This document shows, piece after piece, positions 1,497 through 56,053 of a DNA stretch of 64,000 nucleotides. How positions within the stretch are numbered: position 1 is the stretch's first letter; the number at the start of each line of letters is the position of its first letter. Position numbers and translations under genes: made by a program. The notes beneath the pieces are model-generated. The model made no database searches, was not told the DNA's origin, and worked only from the letters and a program-made list of their open reading frames with translations. The DNA lies in the NCBI GenBank assembly GCA_963827155.1, contig CAWGZV010000002.1, positions 3,287,237-3,351,236 on the forward strand, read 5' to 3'. This DNA comes from an uncultured Chloroflexia bacterium. GTDB taxonomy: Bacteria > Chloroflexota > Anaerolineae > Anaerolineales > UBA4823.

Positions 1497-2195
1497 GTGG
1501 CGCTCATTCTGCTAGTAGACGATGAACAACTGATCACCAACTCGCTTACCTACAGCCTGAAGCGAGAGGGCTTTGATGTTGCCAATGTGGCAGATGGAAT
1601 TTCCGCGATCAAAGCTGTCGAAGAGCTCAATCCAGATCTGATCGTGCTTGATCTCATGCTCCCCGATATCAGCGGATTCGAGGTCTGCCGTCGACTGCGC
1701 ACCTTCACCGCCACGCCGGTCATCATGCTCACGGCGCGTGGAGAAGAGATCGATCGAGTCCTCGGTTTGGAAGTAGGCGCCGATGATTACCTGGCAAAAC
1801 CATTTTCCTTTCGCGAGCTTCTGGCACGCATCCAGGCGATGCTCAGAAGAGTTCAGCTCGACCGCCAGGTCTCCCAACCTCAGCCGATCTCCACCCATCA
1901 GCTGAGCCTTGACCCGGTCGCCAGGCGCACCTGGAGAGGCGATCAGGAGCTCCAGCTTTCGGCGCGCGAATTCGATTTGCTCACAGTTTTGATGAAAAAT
2001 GCTGGTCGGGCGATGAGCCGCGACGAGTTGATCAAACTGGTGTGGGGCGACGATTGGGTCGGTGATCCGCGAACCCTGGATGTCCATGTCCGATGGCTGC
2101 GCCTGAAGATCGAAGAAGATCCCGCCAGCCCTCAATATATTCAAACTGTTCGAGGTTATGGGTATCGTTTTGCAGGACCAGAAGAACTCATCTGA
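1497..2195 (+). CDS. OmpR-family two-component response regulator
   Basis: GTG start. Receiver domain (LVDDE..., LIVLDLMLPD, LTAR) followed by a winged-helix output domain (YIQTVRGYGYRF). Confidence 0.9.
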   Translation: MALILLVDDEQLITNSLTYSLKREGFDVANVADGISAIKAVEELNPDLIVLDLMLPDISGFEVCRRLRTFTATPVIMLTARGEEIDRVLGLEVGADDYLAKPFSFRELLARIQAMLRRVQLDRQVSQPQPISTHQLSLDPVARRTWRGDQELQLSAREFDLLTVLMKNAGRAMSRDELIKLVWGDDWVGDPRTLDVHVRWLRLKIEEDPASPQYIQTVRGYGYRFAGPEELI

Positions 2196-3666
2196 AGATA
2201 AAAAAAAACGTTTTGCCAGCCTTTACCAAAAACTGAGCAATTCCTTAAATTCCCGCCTGGTGCTCTCTCACCTGGCGGTCTCCCTTGTCAGCATTGTCCT
2301 TATGGCGGCTTTCACGGGACGTTATATCTTTCAAGCTGCCAATTTTGAGTTAGAGCACAATCTGCAAGACCTGGCTTTCACAGCTGCCAATGCCATTGAG
2401 CTTCCAATCCAGGAGGTCCAGGAAGGTCGCGCTCAGCCTTCCTATATTCGCGATCTTCTTACCCGTATGTTTGCAGACAATGAAGCGATGGCGTTCTCTG
2501 TGTATTATCCCGATGGGCGTCCGCTAATATCCAGCGATGTCAATGTCCCGCCAAACGCGTCTCGGGCGAACGCACCAGAGGTCATCGATGCACTCGAGAG
2601 CGATATTGGCCGCGGCGTCAGCGTCCGTGGCTACCGTGGCGAACCGTATATGTATATGGCTGTCCTCGTTCAGCGCGAGATAGAAGTCATTGCGATCCTT
2701 CGCCTGGCTGTGCCAATGACTCCAACTCGCGAGGCAGCCCGCCAATCATTCCTGATCATGATGCTGGTTGCGCTGATTATTGCCTCGGGCGTCAGCCTGG
2801 TCGGTTGGATCCTTGCTAAAAACCTTGCCCGTCCTATCCAGGTTCTGACAAATGCCGCAGAACACATGGAGCATGGCGATCTGGGGGTGCGCGTTAAGCC
2901 CTCTGGTCCTAGAGAGCTGCACCGCCTTGCCGAAGCTTTCAACAGCATGGCAAGCCGTCTGCAGTCCAATGTGAACGAGCTTCGAGCTTTCGTTGCCAAC
3001 GCCAGTCACGAGCTGCGCACCCCGCTCACCGTCGTAAAGCTGCGCGCCGAGGCTCTCCGCGAAGGCGCCCTGGACGACCCAGATGTCGCCGAGAAATTCT
3101 TGCAAGAGATTGATACGGAGATCGATCGCCTGGTGCGGATGGTTAACGATTTGCTTGACCTCTCCCGAATGGAAGCCGGGATGGATGCTGGCAAGCCAGT
3201 CCCGGTCAACCTCAATGCGATTGCCCATGAGGTTTATGAGACCTTCAAGATCAGGGCGAAACGTGCAGAAGTGGATCTTAAATTGGAGGTAGAGCCCAAC
3301 CTTCCCCCGGTAATGGGCTATGAAGACCAGCTTCGTCGCGTGTTCTACAATTTACTCGAGAATGCAATCCGATATACCCCCAGTGACGGGCAGGTTGAGC
3401 TTTTACTGCGGGCGGGTCCAAACCCCAAATCGATCCGCTTTCTTGTCCGCGATACCGGACCGGGAATCTCCCCTGAGCATCTTGTTCACGTCTTTGAGCG
3501 CTTCTACCGCGCTGAGACCACCCAGCCCCGTCCAGGGCTTGCGCGTGGCAGCGGGCTTGGACTCGCGATCGTTAAATCGATCGTCGAGAACCATGGGGGT
3601 GAAATTGGGGTTAGCAGCCAGATTGGAAACGGCACTACCTTTTGGGCCGATCTACCCACTGTCTGA
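2158..3666 (+). CDS. Sensor histidine kinase (TM-sensor-TM, HAMP, HisKA, HATPase_c), partner of the upstream regulator
   Basis: H-box ASHELRTPLT, N/G boxes (LLENAIRYTP, DTGPGI, GSGLGLAIV). Two hydrophobic segments flank a putative extracytoplasmic region. Overlaps the regulator gene by 38 nt. Confidence 0.9.
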   Translation: MGIVLQDQKNSSEDKKKRFASLYQKLSNSLNSRLVLSHLAVSLVSIVLMAAFTGRYIFQAANFELEHNLQDLAFTAANAIELPIQEVQEGRAQPSYIRDLLTRMFADNEAMAFSVYYPDGRPLISSDVNVPPNASRANAPEVIDALESDIGRGVSVRGYRGEPYMYMAVLVQREIEVIAILRLAVPMTPTREAARQSFLIMMLVALIIASGVSLVGWILAKNLARPIQVLTNAAEHMEHGDLGVRVKPSGPRELHRLAEAFNSMASRLQSNVNELRAFVANASHELRTPLTVVKLRAEALREGALDDPDVAEKFLQEIDTEIDRLVRMVNDLLDLSRMEAGMDAGKPVPVNLNAIAHEVYETFKIRAKRAEVDLKLEVEPNLPPVMGYEDQLRRVFYNLLENAIRYTPSDGQVELLLRAGPNPKSIRFLVRDTGPGISPEHLVHVFERFYRAETTQPRPGLARGSGLGLAIVKSIVENHGGEIGVSSQIGNGTTFWADLPTV

Positions 3667-48538: not shown

Positions 48539-51500
48539 ATGAGCAATCCGTTGAATTTTCAATCCATTATCTTGAAACTCCAAGATTTTTGGGCAAGCCG
48601 GGGCAGTCTTATCTGGCAGCCTTATTACGCTCAGGTTGGTGCAGGCACATACAACCCTGCCACGTTTCTGCGGGTCTTAGGCCCCGAACCATGGAACGTC
48701 GCCTATGTAGAGCCCTCCATCCGTCCGGACGATGGGCGATATGGTGAAAACCCAAATCGTATGCAAATGCATTATCAGTTCCAGGTCATTCTCAAGCCCG
48801 ATCCTGGCAACCCGCAGGAGATCTACCTCGAGTCACTCCAGGCGATCGGGATCGACCCTCTTCAGCATGACATCCGCTTCGTCGAAGATAACTGGGAATC
48901 GCCCGCCCTGGGTGCCTGGGGGCTTGGTTGGGAGGTGTGGTGCGATGGGCAAGAGATTACCCAATTCACCTATTTTCAGCAAGCCGGCGGAATCCAGCTT
49001 GATCCGGTCTCTGTCGAGATCACATATGGCTTGGAGCGGATCGCGATTGCGCTTCAGGGTGTAGAAGGTTTTCAGGATATTCAGTGGAATGAAACCCTTA
49101 CCGATGGAGACGTGAATCTGCAGGCTGAAGAAGAGCACAGCCGATATTATTTTGAAATTGCCGATGTCGTCCGCCTTCGCCAAATGTATGACCTCTACGA
49201 ACAAGAAGCACAAGCCTGTCTGGAGAAAGGTTTAGTACTGCCTGCCCATGATTATCTTCTAAAGTGCTCGCATACTTTCAATATACTGGATACTCGTGGA
49301 GCAGTGGGTGTCACCGAGCGTCAGGGTTTGTTCGCTCGGATGCGCGATGTGGCGAAAGGCGTCGCCCAGGCTTATTTGGATCAGCGCCAGCGACTTGAGT
49401 TTCCGCTCCTCGACAAGGCTCAGCTCTTGCATCCACAAATGGACGATGTTTCTCTAACCCCCCAGATTTCCCCTGGACCTATTACTGATCTCCCTGAGAA
49501 AGGTGCATTCTTGCTTGAAATTGGAGTCGAGGAGCTCCCTGCTGGCGATCTCGATTCTGCCCTTTATCAGCTTGGAGTCTCTGTTCCGGCTCTATTGGCA
49601 GAACTGCGGCTTGCATATCAGGTTCTGCAAGTGATGGGTACGCCCCGTCGTTTGGTGGTCGTAGTTGAAGAGCTTGCCTCTCGTCAGGCAGACCTGGAAC
49701 AGTGGATTAAGGGACCTCCTGCCGACAAAGCTTTTGCACCTGATGGCTCGCCGACCAAAGCAGTCGAGGGTTTCGCTCGCAGCAAAGGTATTTCAATTGC
49801 AGATTTGGAAATCCGTGAAGTTGAAGGTGGGCGGTATGTCGGTGCCCTGGTGCACCAATCAGGGAAATCGATAGTAGAAGTCTTTGCCGAGGCTCTCCCG
49901 AAGCTGATTGCCTCAATCCGCTTTGAAAAGCCTATGCGCTGGAACCCGAGCAATGTCCTTTTCTCGCGGCCGATTCGTTGGCTGGTGGCGATCTTCTCTC
50001 ACGGTGAAGACTGTACAATAATCCCTTTTGAATTCGCCGGTTTGCTTTCCGGATGTGTGACCAAGGGGCTGCGTTTTAGAATGCCTTTGGAATATTGCGT
50101 TCATTCGCCTCTTGAATATTTCGATTTTCTATCATCTCAAGGCATCGTGCTGGACTCAAACTCCAGGCAGGCTACGGTGAGAGAACAAGTTGCCGCGCTT
50201 GCAAACTCTGCTGGGGGAGTGGTATCCAACGATCCAGAGCTGTTTGCGGAAGTGACAAATTTGGTCGAAGCGCCAACAGCTCTGCTCGGCTCGTTCAATC
50301 CCGACTACCTCAAGCTTCCGCCTGAAGTACTCATCTCGGTTATGAAAAAGCACCAGCGCTATTTCCCGGTGCTTTCTGGTAAGAAAGTTTCTGCCGAGGA
50401 AGTGCCGCTGCCTTGTTTCATCGCCGTCAGAAATGGCGACAATGAAGGTCTAGATACTGTAGTGGAAGGGAATCAACATGTGATTCGCGCCAGGTTTGCG
50501 GATGCGAATTTCTTCGTGCGTGAAGATCTTAAGAAACCGCTTGAAGACTACCTCCCACGCCTGTCCACGCTTACTTTTCAAGCGCGGTTGGGGACTATGA
50601 GAGACAAGGTCACTCGGATCCAGGCTCTGGTTGAAGACCTGAGTCAACAAGTTGGGCTGGATAATGACCAGCTTCGCACGGCACGCCGCGCTGCGCTGCT
50701 CTCTAAAGCCGATCTGGGCACAAGGATGGTAGTTGAGATGACATCCTTACAAGGTCAGATTGGCCGTTACTATGCGCTGCGCTCAGGCGAAATGAGGGAA
50801 GTCGCCCAGGCGATATTAGATCATTATTTGCCCCGGCATGCAGGCGACCAGCTGCCCGCCAGCCGTCCGGGTCTTGTAATCGGTCTGGCCGATCGCCTGG
50901 ATACACTCGCCGGGTTGTTTTCTGCTGGATTAATCCCTTCAGGCAATAAAGATCCATTCGCCTTGAGGCGCCATGCCCTCGGTCTCGTCCAAATCCTGGT
51001 CTCGTGGGATATCGATTTTAATATCGATGAAGGACTGTGTCTGGCTGCCTCGCATCTTCCTATCTCTAGCAGCACCGAAATACTATCTGCCTGCTCGAAC
51101 TTTGTGGTAGAGCGCTTTCGAAATATCCTGTTGGATCAGGGACGTCGCTATGATATTGTCGATGCTGTCCTGGCGGTTCAGGGCCATAATCCGGCGGCAG
51201 CATCACGGGGGGTTGCACAGCTTCAGATATGGACCTCCCGCCCGGATTGGCACCGGATCTTGCCAGCTTATGCCCGTTGTGTGCGCATTACCCGGGATCT
51301 TGAGGAGCAATTTGAAATTGAAAGCAGCCTATTTGCAGAGCAAGCCGAGCGTGATCTCTACCATGATTTGGTCCAGGCTGAGCAGCTAAATCCATCATCT
51401 GCTTCTGTGGATCAATTTCTTAACACTTTTCTGCCCATAATTCCAGCGATTGATCGTTTTTTTGAGCAGGTGCTGGTAATGTCCGAAGACCACCAGATGC

Positions 51501-51583
51501 GTCAAAACCGCCTGGGTTTGCTGCAGCGGATTGCATTATTGGCAGAAAGGGTTGCTGACCTCTCTCGTCTCGAAGGTTTTTAG
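48539..51583 (+). CDS. glyQS: Glycine--tRNA ligase, fused alpha and beta subunits
   Basis: The N-terminal ~290 aa is GlyQ ([33 protein letters not shown]). The remainder is GlyS-like. Single 1014-aa ORF. Confidence 0.9.
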
Positions 51584-51608
51584 TCTCTATTTTTTTTCAA
51601 TTTTCCTC

Positions 51609-51640
51609 GTGCTGCACATATATGTGCAGCACTCTTTATT
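51609..51640 (+). terminator. Rho-independent terminator of glyQS
   Basis: Perfect 24-bp palindrome GTGCTGCACATA|TATGTGCAGCAC (51609-51632) followed by TCTTTATT. Confidence 0.7.
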
Positions 51641-51737
51641 AACCCCCATCTGTAGCCATTACACCAATATTTGCGCCCCAAACCCCACCTATAGAGGTTA
51701 AACCTTTAATCTTACCGCGGTTTTTACGCGTTCTCCC

Positions 51738-51766
51738 TTGACTTATGCTAAAAAGCATGTTATTTT
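51738..51766 (+). promoter_or_regulatory. Sigma-70-like promoter with an inverted repeat in the spacer, upstream of the small-peptide gene
   Basis: TTGACT (51738-51743), a 17-nt spacer containing ATGCT-aaaa-AGCAT, then TATTTT (51761-51766). Confidence 0.5.
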
Positions 51767-51864
51767 ATTGAAAATTACCTAACAATTCTGCAAGGTAACC
51801 TTTCAAGAATGTAAGGTGATTATATCAGAAAAATTTAGGGAATAAAAAACACAGGAGGCATAAA

Positions 51865-52074
51865 ATGTCGTTAGCAAAAGTGGTATACCAATTATCAACC
51901 GACAACGATTTTGCATCACAATGGAAAGTTGACCCAGAAGGCACTTTAGCCAAACAGGGCTTGCGCCTGACGAATGAAGAGTTGGCTTTCCTCAAAAAGG
52001 GTTTGAAGCGCCGCACCGCCGATCAGGTACGACTGTCTGACCTGCTCTACAAGGCTCGGGATTGGGGCGTCTAG
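51865..52074 (+). CDS. 69-aa candidate RiPP/pheromone precursor (NHLP/Nif11-like leader pattern; ComX-like C-terminus ...RDWGV)
   Basis: AGGAGG lies 6 nt upstream of the ATG. The N-terminus LSTDNDFASQWKVDPEGTLAKQGLRLTNEELAFL fits the D..F......DP...L...G..L...E....L leader pattern. There is a basic stretch KKGLKRR and the C-terminus is LLYKARDWGV. Confidence 0.6.
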   Translation: MSLAKVVYQLSTDNDFASQWKVDPEGTLAKQGLRLTNEELAFLKKGLKRRTADQVRLSDLLYKARDWGV

Positions 52075-52170
52075 ATCGATCCTGTCCTGGAGTAATTATC
52101 AATTTATCTTCAATCTTATATCGAGCAAGTCTGGCATGATTATGGAGCATGGCCCGATTTTCGTCGGACG

Positions 52171-53130
52171 ATGCTTCATGTTTTAAATTTGCAGCAGAAC
52201 GAAGCAGAAAAATTACCCTGGCTGCGCCTACCGGGTATGTGCTGTCAGGCACTCGGAGGGGATCCGCATCAGGCGGATCCGGTCGCGGCTGCCTGGATCC
52301 TGTTCAACAAAGCAGCCCACATTATGGATAGCGTCGAAGATCGCGATGAGCTGAATTCTTGGTCTATCGAATCTCTTCCCGAAGCCCACACAAATTCAGA
52401 TGCAAAGACTGCTACCGGCTACAAGAATAGCAGTGCCACGGGCGCAACCTATGCCACCGCTATAAGCGCTGCAACTGGTTTGTATTTCACAGCCAACTTG
52501 ATCCTGCATGACCTTGATGCCAGGCTTGCTTACCCGGCAGCGGCCCAACAGATCAGGGCTGAGTTCCTGAGCCGTTTTTTGGTGATGTGCTGCGGTCAAC
52601 ATTTGGATTTGATCCAGCCGAATCCAACGATTGAACAATACTATAAGATTGCTTCCGCCAAATCAGGGGAATTCTTTGCGGTTGCCTGTTGGGCTGGGGG
52701 GCGTCTGGCATCGGACCAATTTGAGGTGCTGGCTGGACTGCGCCAGTTCGGCCTTCAAATCGGGTTGATTATCCAGATGCTGGACGATTTGAAAGACCTG
52801 CGAGAGTTGAGGATCATCCCAATCGCCAACCGTGCTGCCAGGCTTCTTCGCTCCCTCCCGGTCATCTATGTCTTGGATGTCTTGCCAGAGAGTGAAAAAA
52901 ATCGTCTTATCTCGTTGTTCATAGAACCTCAACTTACATCAGAGCATGAAATTGAGATCCATGAGCTTATCGAAGGCAAAGGGGGAACGCTCTACCTGCT
53001 TGCCGAATTGGAAGGAAGCCGCCAGATGGCTGAAGATGGTCTGGCGCAGGCGGGTATTAAAAATCCTCATATCAGCCCTCTGCATGCGCTTCTTAATCAG
53101 CTTTGCAGCCTTGACCCAAATGGGGGTTAA
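52171..53130 (+). CDS. Divergent polyprenyl-synthase-fold protein (ComQ-like candidate peptide prenyltransferase)
   Basis: Family landmarks are present: AAHIMDSVEDRD (degenerate first Asp-rich motif), CGQHLDL, KIASAKSGEFF and IIQMLDDLKD (intact DDxxD). It lacks GKRxRP, the RRG after motif 1 and the GK..D..K.T segment after motif 2. Confidence 0.75.
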   Translation: MLHVLNLQQNEAEKLPWLRLPGMCCQALGGDPHQADPVAAAWILFNKAAHIMDSVEDRDELNSWSIESLPEAHTNSDAKTATGYKNSSATGATYATAISAATGLYFTANLILHDLDARLAYPAAAQQIRAEFLSRFLVMCCGQHLDLIQPNPTIEQYYKIASAKSGEFFAVACWAGGRLASDQFEVLAGLRQFGLQIGLIIQMLDDLKDLRELRIIPIANRAARLLRSLPVIYVLDVLPESEKNRLISLFIEPQLTSEHEIEIHELIEGKGGTLYLLAELEGSRQMAEDGLAQAGIKNPHISPLHALLNQLCSLDPNGG

Positions 53131-53185
53131 TCTATTTTTAGATTCTTTTCGCTGAAGCCGACTCCGGTCTAAAAGACACCCTTTG

Positions 53186-53194
53186 TGCTAGAAT
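53186..53194 (+). promoter_or_regulatory. Possible extended -10 element (TGCTAGAAT) only 9 nt upstream of the kinase ATG
   Basis: TGC+TAGAAT at 53186-53194. No SD is visible before ATG 53204, so the transcript may be leaderless. This is speculative. Confidence 0.3.
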
Positions 53195-53203
53195 CGAAAT
53201 GAT

Positions 53204-56053
53204 ATGGAAACAGCGCGTGTGACACGCTCCAACACGCTCCTGCGCTGGGTGGCATTTCTGCCGCTCATTTATGCTGTCTTGGTGTTCGCTTTTATCCTTG
53301 GCACAACAGTAAAACTCATTTCCTTCCCAGATGATGGCATCGATAGTGTAAATTCGTCCGGCGAGGTTCAGTCGCTCGCCCCAGCTGGCCCAGCTTTCGG
53401 AAAGCTTCAAGAAGGAGATATTATCATTTCTGTGGAAGGGGTCCCCTTCAGCAGCGGCGCTACAAATTACAGCGCCCTTGATAAAAAGGGTGGTTCTGAA
53501 GTGGAGTTTAAGGTCTTGCGCCAGGGAATATTGACGACAGTCACTGTTCGCCTGGATGCACCATCCCGCGACCTGGTCATGAGCCGGATGGCGGCTATCC
53601 TGATTGCGCTAATGTTTTTGCTGACCGGTATAGGCATCGACGCATTTAAACCATCCGGCTCTGGCAACATGATCTATTCAATCTGGTTCTACACCTGCGC
53701 CCTTACTTTGACTGCAGGTGCGGCATCGACCATGCGGATTGGTTTTTCTACTGCGTTATTTTACATCTGTCTCTGGATGATTGGGGCGGTCTCGGTTCAC
53801 TTCCATATGCATTTTCCCCAGCTGATCCGCTGGCGCCTGAAATATGTATTTCTCTCGATCCTTTATTTCATCAGTTTCTTAGGGATTGCGCCCCTCATCA
53901 TTTTTGGAACTGTCAAGTTTAGGGCTTTCAGCTGGTACCCACAGTTTTTAGGGGCGAGCCAGATCGTCTTATCCATCAGCCTCTTTTTCGTAGTGGCTTT
54001 GTTGATTTTTAGCTATCGGAGCGCAGATACACCTGGCGTGCGCGGAAAAATCCGGCTGGTTTTATTAGGCGGCATTCTGGTGGTTATGCCGTTTATCAGC
54101 CTCACGATCCTTCCGACAGCATTGTTGGACCAGCCGCTGATCCCATATTCAATTGCCTTCCTCTTGCTTGGGCTTCTCCCGCTTACCTATGCATATGCTA
54201 TTTTTCGCCTCCATCTGATCGAGATCGACCAAAAAGTCAACCGCGGTGCGACCTTGATCCTGGTCTATTCGATCCTCGGAGGATTTTACCTGGTGCTTTA
54301 TGCGCTGCTTAACCGTTACCTTCCCACCAGCTTTCGCACCATCCCACTGATCAATACCTTCCTGGTGCTGGTGCTCGCCACCATTTTCATCCCTCTTCAT
54401 CGCTGGGTTCAGCGTATGGTGGACCGCATTTTTTATGGGGGTTGGTACGATTATCGCATCGGCGTTCGTCAAATCACCGAGAACATCTCGCAATTGACAG
54501 ATTTGCAGAGCCTTGCCCAAACGGTAAGCGAGCGGCTTAAAAATACGCTCAGGCTCGAGGAGGCTGTCGTTTTCTTCCGGGATCAGAATGGCGACTTTGC
54601 AGTGGTCGAGGCTTCATTTAGTGGAGGAATTAAAGAACACGAGCGCCGGGAATTCCCGGTCCTGCCGCGCTCCAGCCTAACTTATCTCCTAAAAATCGGC
54701 GCGGCCGAACGTACTGCTCTGCTTCAATCGCTCAGTCAGATAACCCTCACCCCCGAAGAAGTCCAACTTCTCAAAACCGAACAGATCCACCTTTGGGTGC
54801 CCGTGATTGGTCATCAGCAAATTCAGGGCTTGCTTGCCTTGGGACCAAAGATCGGAGGAGACGTATTTAGCGGCGAGGACCTAGACATCCTGCGCGTGGT
54901 CGTTCAGCAACTGAGCCCGATTATCGAAAACATTCATCTGCTTACCGACCTTAAACAGCACGCCTCCGAATTGGAAAAACGGGTTGAGGAGCGTACCGCC
55001 GAGCTCTATGATGCGAAAGAGCGAGTGGAAGCAATCCTGGCAAGCGTAGGAGATGGAGTAGTCGTAACCGACCTCGAGGGCCAGATCTTGACAGTCAATC
55101 TGGCTTTCGAGAGGCTCTCTGGCTTCTCGTCTGTTGAGATACGCGGACAAAATCTTTTCGATATCTTGTCCTCTGAAAACGGCGTTGCGCGCATTTCTGC
55201 AATGAGGGATACTCTTCTGAATGGAGATATTTGGAGTGATGAGCTGGTTGGGCGGCGCATTGATAACAGCCAATACAATATCCAGTTCACCATAGCCCCT
55301 ATTCACGATCGCCAGGGTCAGCCAGTCGGTTATGTTGGAAGCCAAACAGATATCAGCCGTCAAAAAGAGCTCGATAAAATGAAGGATGCCTTTATTTCAG
55401 ATGTCTCTCATGAGCTTCGCACTCCAATTACCAACATCAGCCTTTATATTGAACTCTTGAAATCTGCACCGGTTGATCGTCACTCTCGCTACCTTGAAAT
55501 CGTTAAGGAACAGAGTTCGCTCCTAACCAAATTGGTTGAAGATATCCTGGACCTCTCGCGGCTTACTGCATCGAAGACCAGACCTGCTGTTTTTTCACCC
55601 ATCCAGCTGAATAAACTCGCCGAACAGGTCGTTACAGCTTATTTGCCGCTAGCCGAGGCTTCAGGGGTAAATCTGGTCTTCCAACCCGATCCCGATCTAC
55701 CGGTCGTCCAAGTCGAACAAAATCAAATCGCCCGCCTGATCACGAACCTGGTAACGAATGCGGTCCGTTACTCGCCCAAGGGGCAGGTCTTCGTCAGTAC
55801 TACCCAGGATCTGGGATGGGTTTCTATAAAAGTTGAAGACACCGGGATTGGCATCGACCCGCACGATATTCCGCACATCTTTGAGCGGTTTTTCCGCGGA
55901 AGCAATGTGCGCCAATCGGAAATGCACGGCACCGGACTTGGATTGGCAATCGTCAAGGAGATCGTCGATTTCCATGGAGGCACCATCGAAGTCAACAGCG
56001 TTCCGGGGGTCGGTTCTTGCTTCCAGGCCTGGCTCCCCATGACCCAGTTATAA
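53204..56053 (+). CDS. Multi-TM sensor histidine kinase (TM, PDZ-like, ~9 TM, GAF, PAS, HisKA, HATPase_c)
   Basis: PDZ-like GPAFGKLQEGDIIISVEGVPF...VEFKVLRQG, then a long polytopic region. After that come a GAF-like and a PAS segment (VGDGVVVTDLEGQILTVNLAFERLSGF), the H-box SHELRTPIT and the G-box GTGLGLAIV. Confidence 0.9.
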   Translation: METARVTRSNTLLRWVAFLPLIYAVLVFAFILGTTVKLISFPDDGIDSVNSSGEVQSLAPAGPAFGKLQEGDIIISVEGVPFSSGATNYSALDKKGGSEVEFKVLRQGILTTVTVRLDAPSRDLVMSRMAAILIALMFLLTGIGIDAFKPSGSGNMIYSIWFYTCALTLTAGAASTMRIGFSTALFYICLWMIGAVSVHFHMHFPQLIRWRLKYVFLSILYFISFLGIAPLIIFGTVKFRAFSWYPQFLGASQIVLSISLFFVVALLIFSYRSADTPGVRGKIRLVLLGGILVVMPFISLTILPTALLDQPLIPYSIAFLLLGLLPLTYAYAIFRLHLIEIDQKVNRGATLILVYSILGGFYLVLYALLNRYLPTSFRTIPLINTFLVLVLATIFIPLHRWVQRMVDRIFYGGWYDYRIGVRQITENISQLTDLQSLAQTVSERLKNTLRLEEAVVFFRDQNGDFAVVEASFSGGIKEHERREFPVLPRSSLTYLLKIGAAERTALLQSLSQITLTPEEVQLLKTEQIHLWVPVIGHQQIQGLLALGPKIGGDVFSGEDLDILRVVVQQLSPIIENIHLLTDLKQHASELEKRVEERTAELYDAKERVEAILASVGDGVVVTDLEGQILTVNLAFERLSGFSSVEIRGQNLFDILSSENGVARISAMRDTLLNGDIWSDELVGRRIDNSQYNIQFTIAPIHDRQGQPVGYVGSQTDISRQKELDKMKDAFISDVSHELRTPITNISLYIELLKSAPVDRHSRYLEIVKEQSSLLTKLVEDILDLSRLTASKTRPAVFSPIQLNKLAEQVVTAYLPLAEASGVNLVFQPDPDLPVVQVEQNQIARLITNLVTNAVRYSPKGQVFVSTTQDLGWVSIKVEDTGIGIDPHDIPHIFERFFRGSNVRQSEMHGTGLGLAIVKEIVDFHGGTIEVNSVPGVGSCFQAWLPMTQL

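Follow-up and report, generated by a model that had tools for sequence, protein, structure and literature searches.

Peptide tryptophan prenyltransferases act on ribosomally made, modified peptides (RiPPs), some of them with an NHLP-type leader (NHLP, nitrile hydratase leader peptide), and the described systems closest to the locus reported here are those of ComQ, PalQ and StheQ, together with the indole prenyltransferase Ord1. ComQ of Bacillus is an enzyme that has the fold of trans-isoprenyl diphosphate synthases (IPPS) and geranylates or farnesylates a Trp of the peptide ComX; it needs the first and fifth Asp of its first Asp-rich motif (motif 1), and it takes the acceptor Trp only second to fourth from the C-terminus (PMC5331326). 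For the second Asp-rich motif (motif 2), a pseudo-motif NDxxx or GDxxx has been stated as required, and DDxxD has been rated 'unsuitable' for prenylating Trp (PMC5331326). The gene for PalQ, from Paenibacillus alvei, is accompanied by those for an NHLP-type precursor, PalX, and a histidine kinase, PalP, and the enzyme prenylates the C-terminal Trp at C3 (PMC10853753; PMC13290415); its conserved Q197, ahead of D200 and D204, faces the indole NH, and the PalX leader enhances the modification (PMC10853753). In Sphaerobacter thermophilus (Chloroflexi), StheQ adds the prenyl group to W68 of StheX, a peptide of 69 residues, and in the structure of the enzyme Mg2+ sits at D85 and D89, with D91, K174 and Q212 around the diphosphate; it also accepts Fmoc-Trp (bioRxiv 10.64898/2026.08.29.745113). 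Ord1, which is all-alpha, farnesylates free indole through a relay of Q216 and D219 (PDB 9V4G-J; PMC12510300). Here we analyse a stretch of 64,000 nt from an uncultured Anaerolineales bacterium (the window; coordinates are positions within it, and features written as start..end lie on the forward strand), in which the gene for an IPPS-fold protein, Q, is preceded by a small-peptide gene, X, and followed by a histidine kinase gene, P. We consider it quite likely that Q is an IPPS-fold peptide tryptophan prenyltransferase acting on X, and that X-Q-P is a ComQXP-like cell-cell signalling cassette of Anaerolineae.

The decisive evidence is the neighbourhood, with X upstream of Q, P downstream and this order kept, and the ComQ-type reading rests mainly on that context. 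In tblastn searches the order X-Q-P was found in 26 of 26 related loci, wherever the contig extends far enough for the order to be read, and the spacing between X and Q is often 0-30 nt. The 19 loci obtained from a genome scan all come from Chloroflexota/Anaerolineales metagenome-assembled genomes (MAGs). The three genes keep together when their flanks change: glyQS and dnaG enclose them in the window and at loci L001 and L004, whereas at L002 and L006 their neighbours are unrelated genes.

X (51865..52074) encodes a peptide of 69 residues, within the range of 67-71 residues seen across the related loci. It consists of a helical leader of the NHLP clan at about residues 1-47, a conserved VRLSDL motif and a variable tail that ends in DWGV (residues 58-69 read SDLLYKARDWGV). 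Its score with the NCBIfam model NF038399 is 34.7 bits, where the cut-off is 40; its orthologues match NF038399 in 20 of 20 cases, TIGR04509 in 12 of 20 and TIGR03793 in 3 of 20; X also has a weak match to Pfam Frankia_peptide. The AlphaFold2 model shows a helical leader with pLDDT 81-87 (residues 1-40) and a tail at 56-58, and its best fold matches, although weak (E ~0.2), are RiPP precursors with NHLP-like leaders (SonA, a proteusin). Judged from these family matches, X is an NHLP-clan RiPP precursor. Alignments of 20 and of 46 orthologues show a conserved leader, with the last ~12 residues variable except for one invariant Trp. In the window this sole invariant tail residue is Trp67 (codon 52063..52065), third from the C-terminus, and it is the predicted prenyl acceptor. 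A profile search with X found 409 proteins; among the 120 listed, a Trp is followed by no residue in 1, by one residue in 76 and by two in 43, and the residue before it is mostly G, S or N. At L014, two tandem copies of X (2361-2576 and 2606-2821) with a single Q downstream differ by a few residues in their leaders and have identical tails.

Q (52171..53130) is a prenyltransferase-type protein of the IPPS fold, with 319 residues when counted from the first ATG. A database search returned 43 close homologues, and a search with the family profile against 1.84 billion cluster representatives put 434 clusters (at 50% identity, E<=1e-30) in the Q family; these numbers indicate that the gene is real. 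Many of the relatives are named 'geranylgeranyl pyrophosphate synthase' by JGI, and the family as a whole is mostly so named or called 'hypothetical'.

The first-pass annotation had described this open reading frame as retaining GQxxD, KSG and an intact motif 2, and every string it quoted is where it was placed: HIMDSVEDRD at residues 50-59, CGQHLDL at 141-147, KIASAKSGEFF at 159-169 and IIQMLDDLKD at 200-209. To assess how far these motifs are kept, we used 189 aligned relatives (184 for the columns of motif 1). Motif 1, D53-S-V-E-D57-R-D59 (52327..52347), is where the prenyl donor is predicted to be held through Mg2+ and its diphosphate. It had been called degenerate, correctly, as it departs from the canonical DDx(2-4)D, but it keeps the first and fifth Asp, the very pair that ComQ cannot do without and that StheQ uses to bind Mg2+. 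D53 is present in 184 of 184 relatives and D57 in 182, and position 59 is Asp or Glu in 172. Position 54 is free (S in 77, D in 28, N in 19, A in 15, K in 14 and H in 12), the canonical DD being found in 28 family members. The GQxxD string CGQHLDL (52591..52611) aligns to QGQHDD of ComQ, with G142 in 184 of the 189 relatives and Q143 in all 189. K164-S-G (52660..52668) aligns to K-C/S-G of ComQ and supplies the predicted diphosphate-contacting Lys, which is kept in 184 of 189. Motif 2 is intact and follows a conserved Gln (Q202-M-L-D205-D206-L-K-D209, 52774..52797); this is the predicted indole-positioning site, with Q202 in 185 relatives, D206 in 181, and position 205 occupied by Asp in 176 and by Asn in 10. 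The members with the Asn state, Q-I-A-N-D, are P0116, P0138, P0151, P0153, P0160, P0163, P0164, P0169, P0177 and P0185, and on this alignment the Q family spans both motif states. The near-invariance of D53, D57, D59, K164, Q202, D205 and D206 over 189 sequences argues for catalysis.

The residues that in chain-elongating synthases would hold isopentenyl diphosphate (IPP) are missing, as had also been reported for Q itself, and they are missing throughout the relatives. Where the motif GKRxRP would stand, the 189 aligned relatives read W-x-x-L-P; the column of RRG reads P-D-P-W-W; and nothing similar to the segment GK..D..K.T after motif 2 was seen in them. Since these basic residues are absent across all 189 relatives, their loss marks the family and is no defect of this one gene. 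The first-pass annotation had allowed that an N-terminal frameshift might hide the missing motifs. The open frame upstream, 52096-52170, is coding (see below), but GKR, KRxR, RRG and K.T are found neither there nor in the Q open reading frame.

The AlphaFold2 model of Q, built from the family alignment, is all-alpha with pLDDT 82.8. Foldseek searches with this model returned archaeal and bacterial geranylgeranyl diphosphate (GGPP) and polyprenyl synthases as well as Ord1, and the match to the GGPP synthase (GGPPS) 1wy0 (TM 0.74, E 1e-7) places Q in the isoprenoid synthase fold. Pfam PF00348 (polyprenyl_synt) covers only residues 95-211, with 45.7 bits. The NCBIfam models for farnesyl diphosphate, GGPP and longer-chain synthases give 12-57 bits against cut-offs of 275-600, the best equivalog scores being 57 bits (cut-off 450), 46 (475) and 29 (275), all of them well below threshold. 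The best PDB match of the Q family profile is Ord1 (E 5.6e-18), and in this profile alignment Q202 and D205 fall on the catalytic Q216 and D219. Aligned by hhalign with 12 authentic ComQ sequences, the Q family gave a probability of 98.4% with E 5.9e-15; the alignment runs over 255 columns with an identity of 20%, and both sides have MDxxEDxD, GQHxD, K(S/C)G, Q..xD and, where RRG would stand, a Trp. StheQ did not appear among the PDB matches in sequence, profile or fold searches, which returned only Ord1 and canonical synthases. The first-pass annotation had proposed a ComQ-like transferase that takes an allylic donor, lacks an IPP site and acts on another acceptor, and had pointed at the neighbouring open reading frame; the NHLP-type leader and near-terminal Trp of X, the linkage in 26 of 26 loci, the hhalign result and the match to Ord1 all support this proposal.

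Set beside the described systems, Q and its neighbours resemble each of them in part. In motif 1, Q and ComQ have the first and fifth Asp in common (D53 and D57 of Q), the Trp of X lies within the window of second to fourth from the end (second or third in 119 of the 120 listed X), a polytopic sensor kinase is encoded by the pair, and the tail of the peptide is variable while the rest is conserved. The differences are that ComX lacks the NHLP-type leader that X has, and that the gene order is Q-X-P-A in Bacillus subtilis but X-Q-P in the window. PalQ and StheQ were compared by their published descriptions, PalQ at the level of the superfamily. In the PalQ system three parts are alike, namely a histidine kinase, an NHLP-type precursor with a conserved leader and a C-terminal Trp, and a prenyltransferase of the isoprenoid synthase superfamily. 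There, too, the precursor gene is listed ahead of the transferase gene, a small residue (Gly) is favoured before the Trp, and the spacing of Q197, D200 and D204 equals that of Q202, D205 and D209 in Q; a Gln ahead of motif 2 also occurs in canonical synthases. PalQ differs in that its Trp must be the last residue, a C-terminal extension abolishing activity, whereas only 1 of the 120 listed X ends in Trp, and in its annotation, which is that of a terpene synthase far from the known subfamilies; Q has a match to Pfam polyprenyl_synt. The homologues listed for PalQ are from Firmicutes (Table S1, PMC10853753), and the Q family is from Chloroflexota.

StheQ comes from the same phylum as the window. 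Its peptide, like X, has 69 residues, an ordered N-terminal part, a flexible stretch of the last ~10 residues and a Trp beside the C-terminus; the enzyme has the IPPS fold with GGPPS and Ord1 as its nearest structures, and D85/D89/D91 have the spacing of D53/D57/D59, with a diphosphate Lys and a Gln one turn before motif 2. It differs in that stheX lies downstream of stheQ, while X lies upstream of Q, and no kinase is described for StheQ/X, while the window cassette has P. Ord1 aligns residue for residue with Q over Q-x-x-D-D and likewise works without IPP condensation, but its acceptor is free indole and not a peptide, it has no known precursor or kinase partner, and it has a canonical DDxxD in motif 1 followed by RR, both of which Q lacks. 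The farnesyl diphosphate synthases and GGPPS (PF00348, IPR000092) resemble Q in their fold, in an all-alpha architecture of the dimer type and in having GQ, K(S/T)G and a DDxxD as motif 2. Q differs from them in that it lacks the IPP-binding basic residues, does not conserve the second Asp of motif 1 and has a conserved genomic link with a kinase and a peptide. PalQ and Ord1, like Q, begin motif 2 with Asp, which makes the Q clade one of the PalQ/Ord1 type. In view of its differences from the described systems, we file Q as a further clade of peptide Trp prenyltransferases that resemble trans-isoprenyl diphosphate synthases, and not as a strict ComQ (IPR033965) member.

If Q acts in this way, it would bind an allylic prenyl diphosphate (C10-C20 by analogy) through Mg2+ on D53 and D57, with D59, and through K164. 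Having no site for IPP, it would instead dock X through the folded NHLP-type leader, and Trp67 of the flexible tail would be set beside Q202 and D205, where Q would alkylate the indole. By analogy with ComX, PalX and StheX, the alkylation would probably occur at C3 and be accompanied by closure of a pyrroloindoline ring. The leader would be removed afterwards, possibly at the conserved VRLSDL, and cleavage there would leave a mature peptide of ~8-10 residues. This lipopeptide would then be sensed by the polytopic kinase P. What the analysis shows is the fold of Q, its motifs, the loss of the IPP-binding residues across the family, the linkage of X, Q and P and the invariant Trp of X, while catalysis on X, the site and chemistry of prenylation, the donor, the processing and the sensing by P are inferred.

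Several observations weigh against this reading. Motif 1 has Ser, and neither Asp nor Glu, in second place. Motif 2 of Q, DDLKD, starts with Asp, whereas the corresponding ComQ motif is Q-I-x-[N/G/S]-D-Y and never DD, and StheQ has a pseudo-motif, N215-D216; the equivalent change from Asn to Asp costs ComQ 90% of its activity and StheQ, in N215D, 98%. The identity of ~20% to ComQ is about that to canonical GGPPS, so the sequence alone does not group Q with the peptide transferases. Co-conservation of X, Q and P among related Chloroflexota is in part inherited synteny. P is a kinase of the HisKA type with PDZ, GAF and PAS domains and not of the ComP type, and no response regulator adjoins it in the window; ComP and ComA form a NarL-type (HisKA_3) pair.

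The most serious alternative concerns the role of the product and not the chemistry. Here Q would prenylate X, but instead of a quorum signal this would yield a lipidated RiPP that serves, for example, as antimicrobial, surfactant or membrane anchor, and P would regulate or answer to something else. The products of PalX and StheX likewise have no established biological role (PMC10853753; bioRxiv 10.64898/2026.08.29.745113), prenylated peptides can be membrane-active (PMC13290415), the cytoplasmic GAF and PAS domains of P could sense other inputs, and P has no regulator gene beside it in the window. However, P directly follows Q in every locus that is long enough, even where the flanks differ, the N-terminal, probably extracytoplasmic part of P diverges fastest, and no transporter, immunity or further tailoring gene is conserved beside the trio, so that we regard a product without a signalling role as unlikely.

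We give much less weight to the possibility that Q is an Ord1-like prenyltransferase of aromatic or other small, non-peptide molecules and that X is an unrelated neighbour. The profile match to Ord1, the correspondence of Q202/D205 with Q216/D219 and the acceptance of Fmoc-Trp by StheQ would all fit such an enzyme, but against it stand the linkage of X and Q in 26 of 26 loci, often in a shared frame and 0-30 nt apart, the near-terminal Trp in all 120 listed X, which it would not explain, and the NHLP-type leader; Ord1 moreover keeps RR after motif 1, which Q does not. Still harder to sustain, and in our judgement very improbable, is a divergent chain-elongating (GGPPS-like) prenyl diphosphate synthase: the Pfam match, the DDxxD of motif 2, the GQ and KSG strings, the top Foldseek hits and the JGI names point that way, against which stand the absence of the IPP-diphosphate basic residues in 189 relatives, equivalog scores far below their cut-offs, a second Asp of motif 1 that is not conserved, and a link to X and P that a synthase would leave unexplained. 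Some small subunits of heteromeric geranyl diphosphate synthases likewise have no IPP-binding motifs, and this, with the degenerate position 2 of motif 1, could suggest that Q has no catalytic role and is a binding protein or synthase-like subunit (comparable to the small subunits of heteromeric geranyl diphosphate or heptaprenyl synthases) or a leader-binding chaperone for X, but the metal- and diphosphate-binding residues are near-invariant over 189 sequences, a hidden Markov model search found no second polyprenyl synthase in the 64-kb window and the related loci have no partner synthase gene either; we judge this reading very improbable too.

Under the preferred reading, in which Q prenylates X for a signal, P (53204..56053) is the candidate receptor. 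It is a sensor histidine kinase of 949 residues with Pfam matches to PDZ_2, GAF, PAS, HisKA (PF00512) and HATPase_c. A Kyte-Doolittle scan places the first transmembrane segment at residues 16-34 and a polytopic membrane block of ~8 hydrophobic segments at residues 130-398 (53591..54397). Between them, at residues 45-117 (53336..53554), lies a divergent PDZ domain, probably extracytoplasmic by the predicted topology, with a PDZ_2 score of 31.7 bits (cut-off 27) on the N-terminal 150 residues; PDZ-like matches are found in 9 of 10 P orthologues, mostly below threshold. The N-terminal 120 residues of P are its most divergent part, with 28-47% identity as against 54-79% in the kinase core, a pattern like that of receptors whose sequence changes together with a variable peptide ligand. 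The typical ligands of PDZ domains are C-termini, so the PDZ domain of P could read the tail of X. The gene after P in the window is dnaG, and there is thus no cognate regulator adjacent to it. At L002 (9916-10887), and also at L003 and L026, a response regulator (REC) with an HD_5 (HD-GYP-type) output lies directly 3' of P. Elsewhere in the window, an OmpR-type response regulator and a HAMP-HisKA kinase form a pair at 1497-3666, ~50 kb from the cassette, with nothing linking it to X-Q-P.

The translation start of Q is unusual. The frame upstream of the first ATG (52096..52170, LSIYLQSYIEQVWHDYGAWPDFRRT) contains no ATG, GTG or TTG, and yet it matches the conserved N-terminal helix of the family, IExxWxxxGAWPEF; this match indicates that it is translated and that Q is longer than 319 residues. 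The likely start is an ATT at 52102, and a GGAG that resembles a Shine-Dalgarno sequence, as read from the sequence, lies 9 nt before it (52089..52092). Of 21 loci, 9-10 likewise have no ATG, GTG or TTG upstream of the first ATG of Q, and the gap from the X stop to the first Q ATG, 52072-52170 in the window, was noted also at L002, L004, L007, L008, L013, L017, L018 and L022. In other loci a near-cognate ATT, ATC or CTG follows GGAG, which is often built from the Trp-Arg codons of X. X and Q share one reading frame in 13 of 21 loci, and in 10 of 21 the Q frame opens directly past the X stop. This pattern suggests near-cognate initiation or translational coupling, and our preferred reading is that initiation would be near-cognate, with little Q made per X. 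At L004 (5887-5898), L017, L022, L001 and L002, the X-terminal Trp-Arg codons TGG AGx give GGAG(G) a few nt before the presumed start of Q. As TGG AGx is itself Shine-Dalgarno-like, the frequent 'WR' ending of X may be constrained by the translation of Q in addition to the function of the peptide. Read-through of the X stop codon to give an X-Q fusion was considered and is unlikely in the window, where two stops, TAG at 52072-74 and TAA at 52093-95, stand in frame. Eight family members carry N-terminal extensions of 50-90 residues. At L019, L020, L024 and L025, mostly 'MFD' assemblies, Q and/or P are split over several frames, and the broken frames in these MAGs are probably assembly frameshifts and not pseudogenes.

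These details can be combined into a more specific version of the proposal, which we offer as tentative and rather doubtful. In it, X-Q-P would be a quorum-sensing module widespread in Anaerolineae; P would read the free C-terminus of the prenyl-Trp peptide through an extracytoplasmic PDZ domain set before a polytopic, lipid-facing block; Q would be under-translated relative to X through its near-cognate start (ATT, ATC or CTG), with a Shine-Dalgarno sequence supplied by the Trp-Arg codons of X that would tie the tail to Q expression; and, against the rule drawn from ComQ, an intact DDxxD would be compatible with Trp prenylation. Should the module work as proposed, the PDZ-based reading and the tail-linked under-translation of Q might be features without precedent, a suggestion that we also make with little confidence.

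After motif 1, Q carries a Ser/Thr/Ala-rich loop insertion at about residues 71-94 (52381..52452) that is lineage-specific. The first-pass annotation had drawn it at residues 74-103; the insertion itself stands, but the part reading 'ISAATG' belongs to the helix that follows, whose conserved beginning it forms. The insertion occurs in Q of the window and in just one relative, P0002 with 88% identity, where it is longer, and is missing from 19 of 21 aligned homologues. The AlphaFold2 model predicts disorder there (pLDDT<50 at residues 72-89). An origin by tandem repeats was rejected, a repeat search of its DNA having found nothing. The insertion is without bearing on the function of Q.

Upstream of the cassette, glyQS (48539-51583) encodes fused alpha and beta subunits of glycyl-tRNA synthetase in 1014 residues (tRNA-synt_2e and 2f in the homologous loci), and in several genomes X-Q-P lies between this fused gene and the housekeeping genes dnaG-rpoD. 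A terminator-like hairpin follows glyQS (51609..51632; a 10-bp stem, 6 of its pairs being G-C, ahead of a T-rich tail), which by its position is the likely upstream boundary of the cassette, and a promoter-like site lies ~100 nt upstream of X (51738..51766; TTGACT-17-TATTTT with an extended TG). Both are consensus matches only, and the count of promoter-like sites in the region is not above that in shuffles. Taken together, the two elements suggest that X-Q-P may be its own transcription unit. A weak terminator-like hairpin with a T-run at 53111-53130, also a consensus match only, overlaps the last codons of Q and may be a point of differential expression between X-Q and P. An Rfam scan of 51300-53400 gave no riboswitch or leader RNA and only a chance snoRNA match (E 0.95). 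In a tblastn search of Q against plasmids, the sole match was an unrelated Lactiplantibacillus polyprenyl synthase.

Each element of the proposed cassette has a published precedent, one of them in the same phylum. What is new is the clade itself, a large one so far confined to Chloroflexota of the Anaerolineae type, whose members carry the annotation GGPP synthase or hypothetical; also new are its intact motif 2, its PDZ-bearing kinase and its unusual translation start. If the proposal is true, at least 434 clusters (at 50% identity) would be peptide Trp prenyltransferases, paired with ~400 distinct NHLP-type precursors, and a systematic mis-annotation would be corrected. They would be natural enzymes that take a Trp followed by 1-2 residues with an intact DDxxD, which would inform how the fold comes to use Trp or IPP, and they would widen the toolbox for enzymatic peptide lipidation. 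Anaerolineae are filament-forming bacteria for which, to our knowledge, no cell-cell signal is known, and ComX-like lipopeptide signalling would be extended to them.

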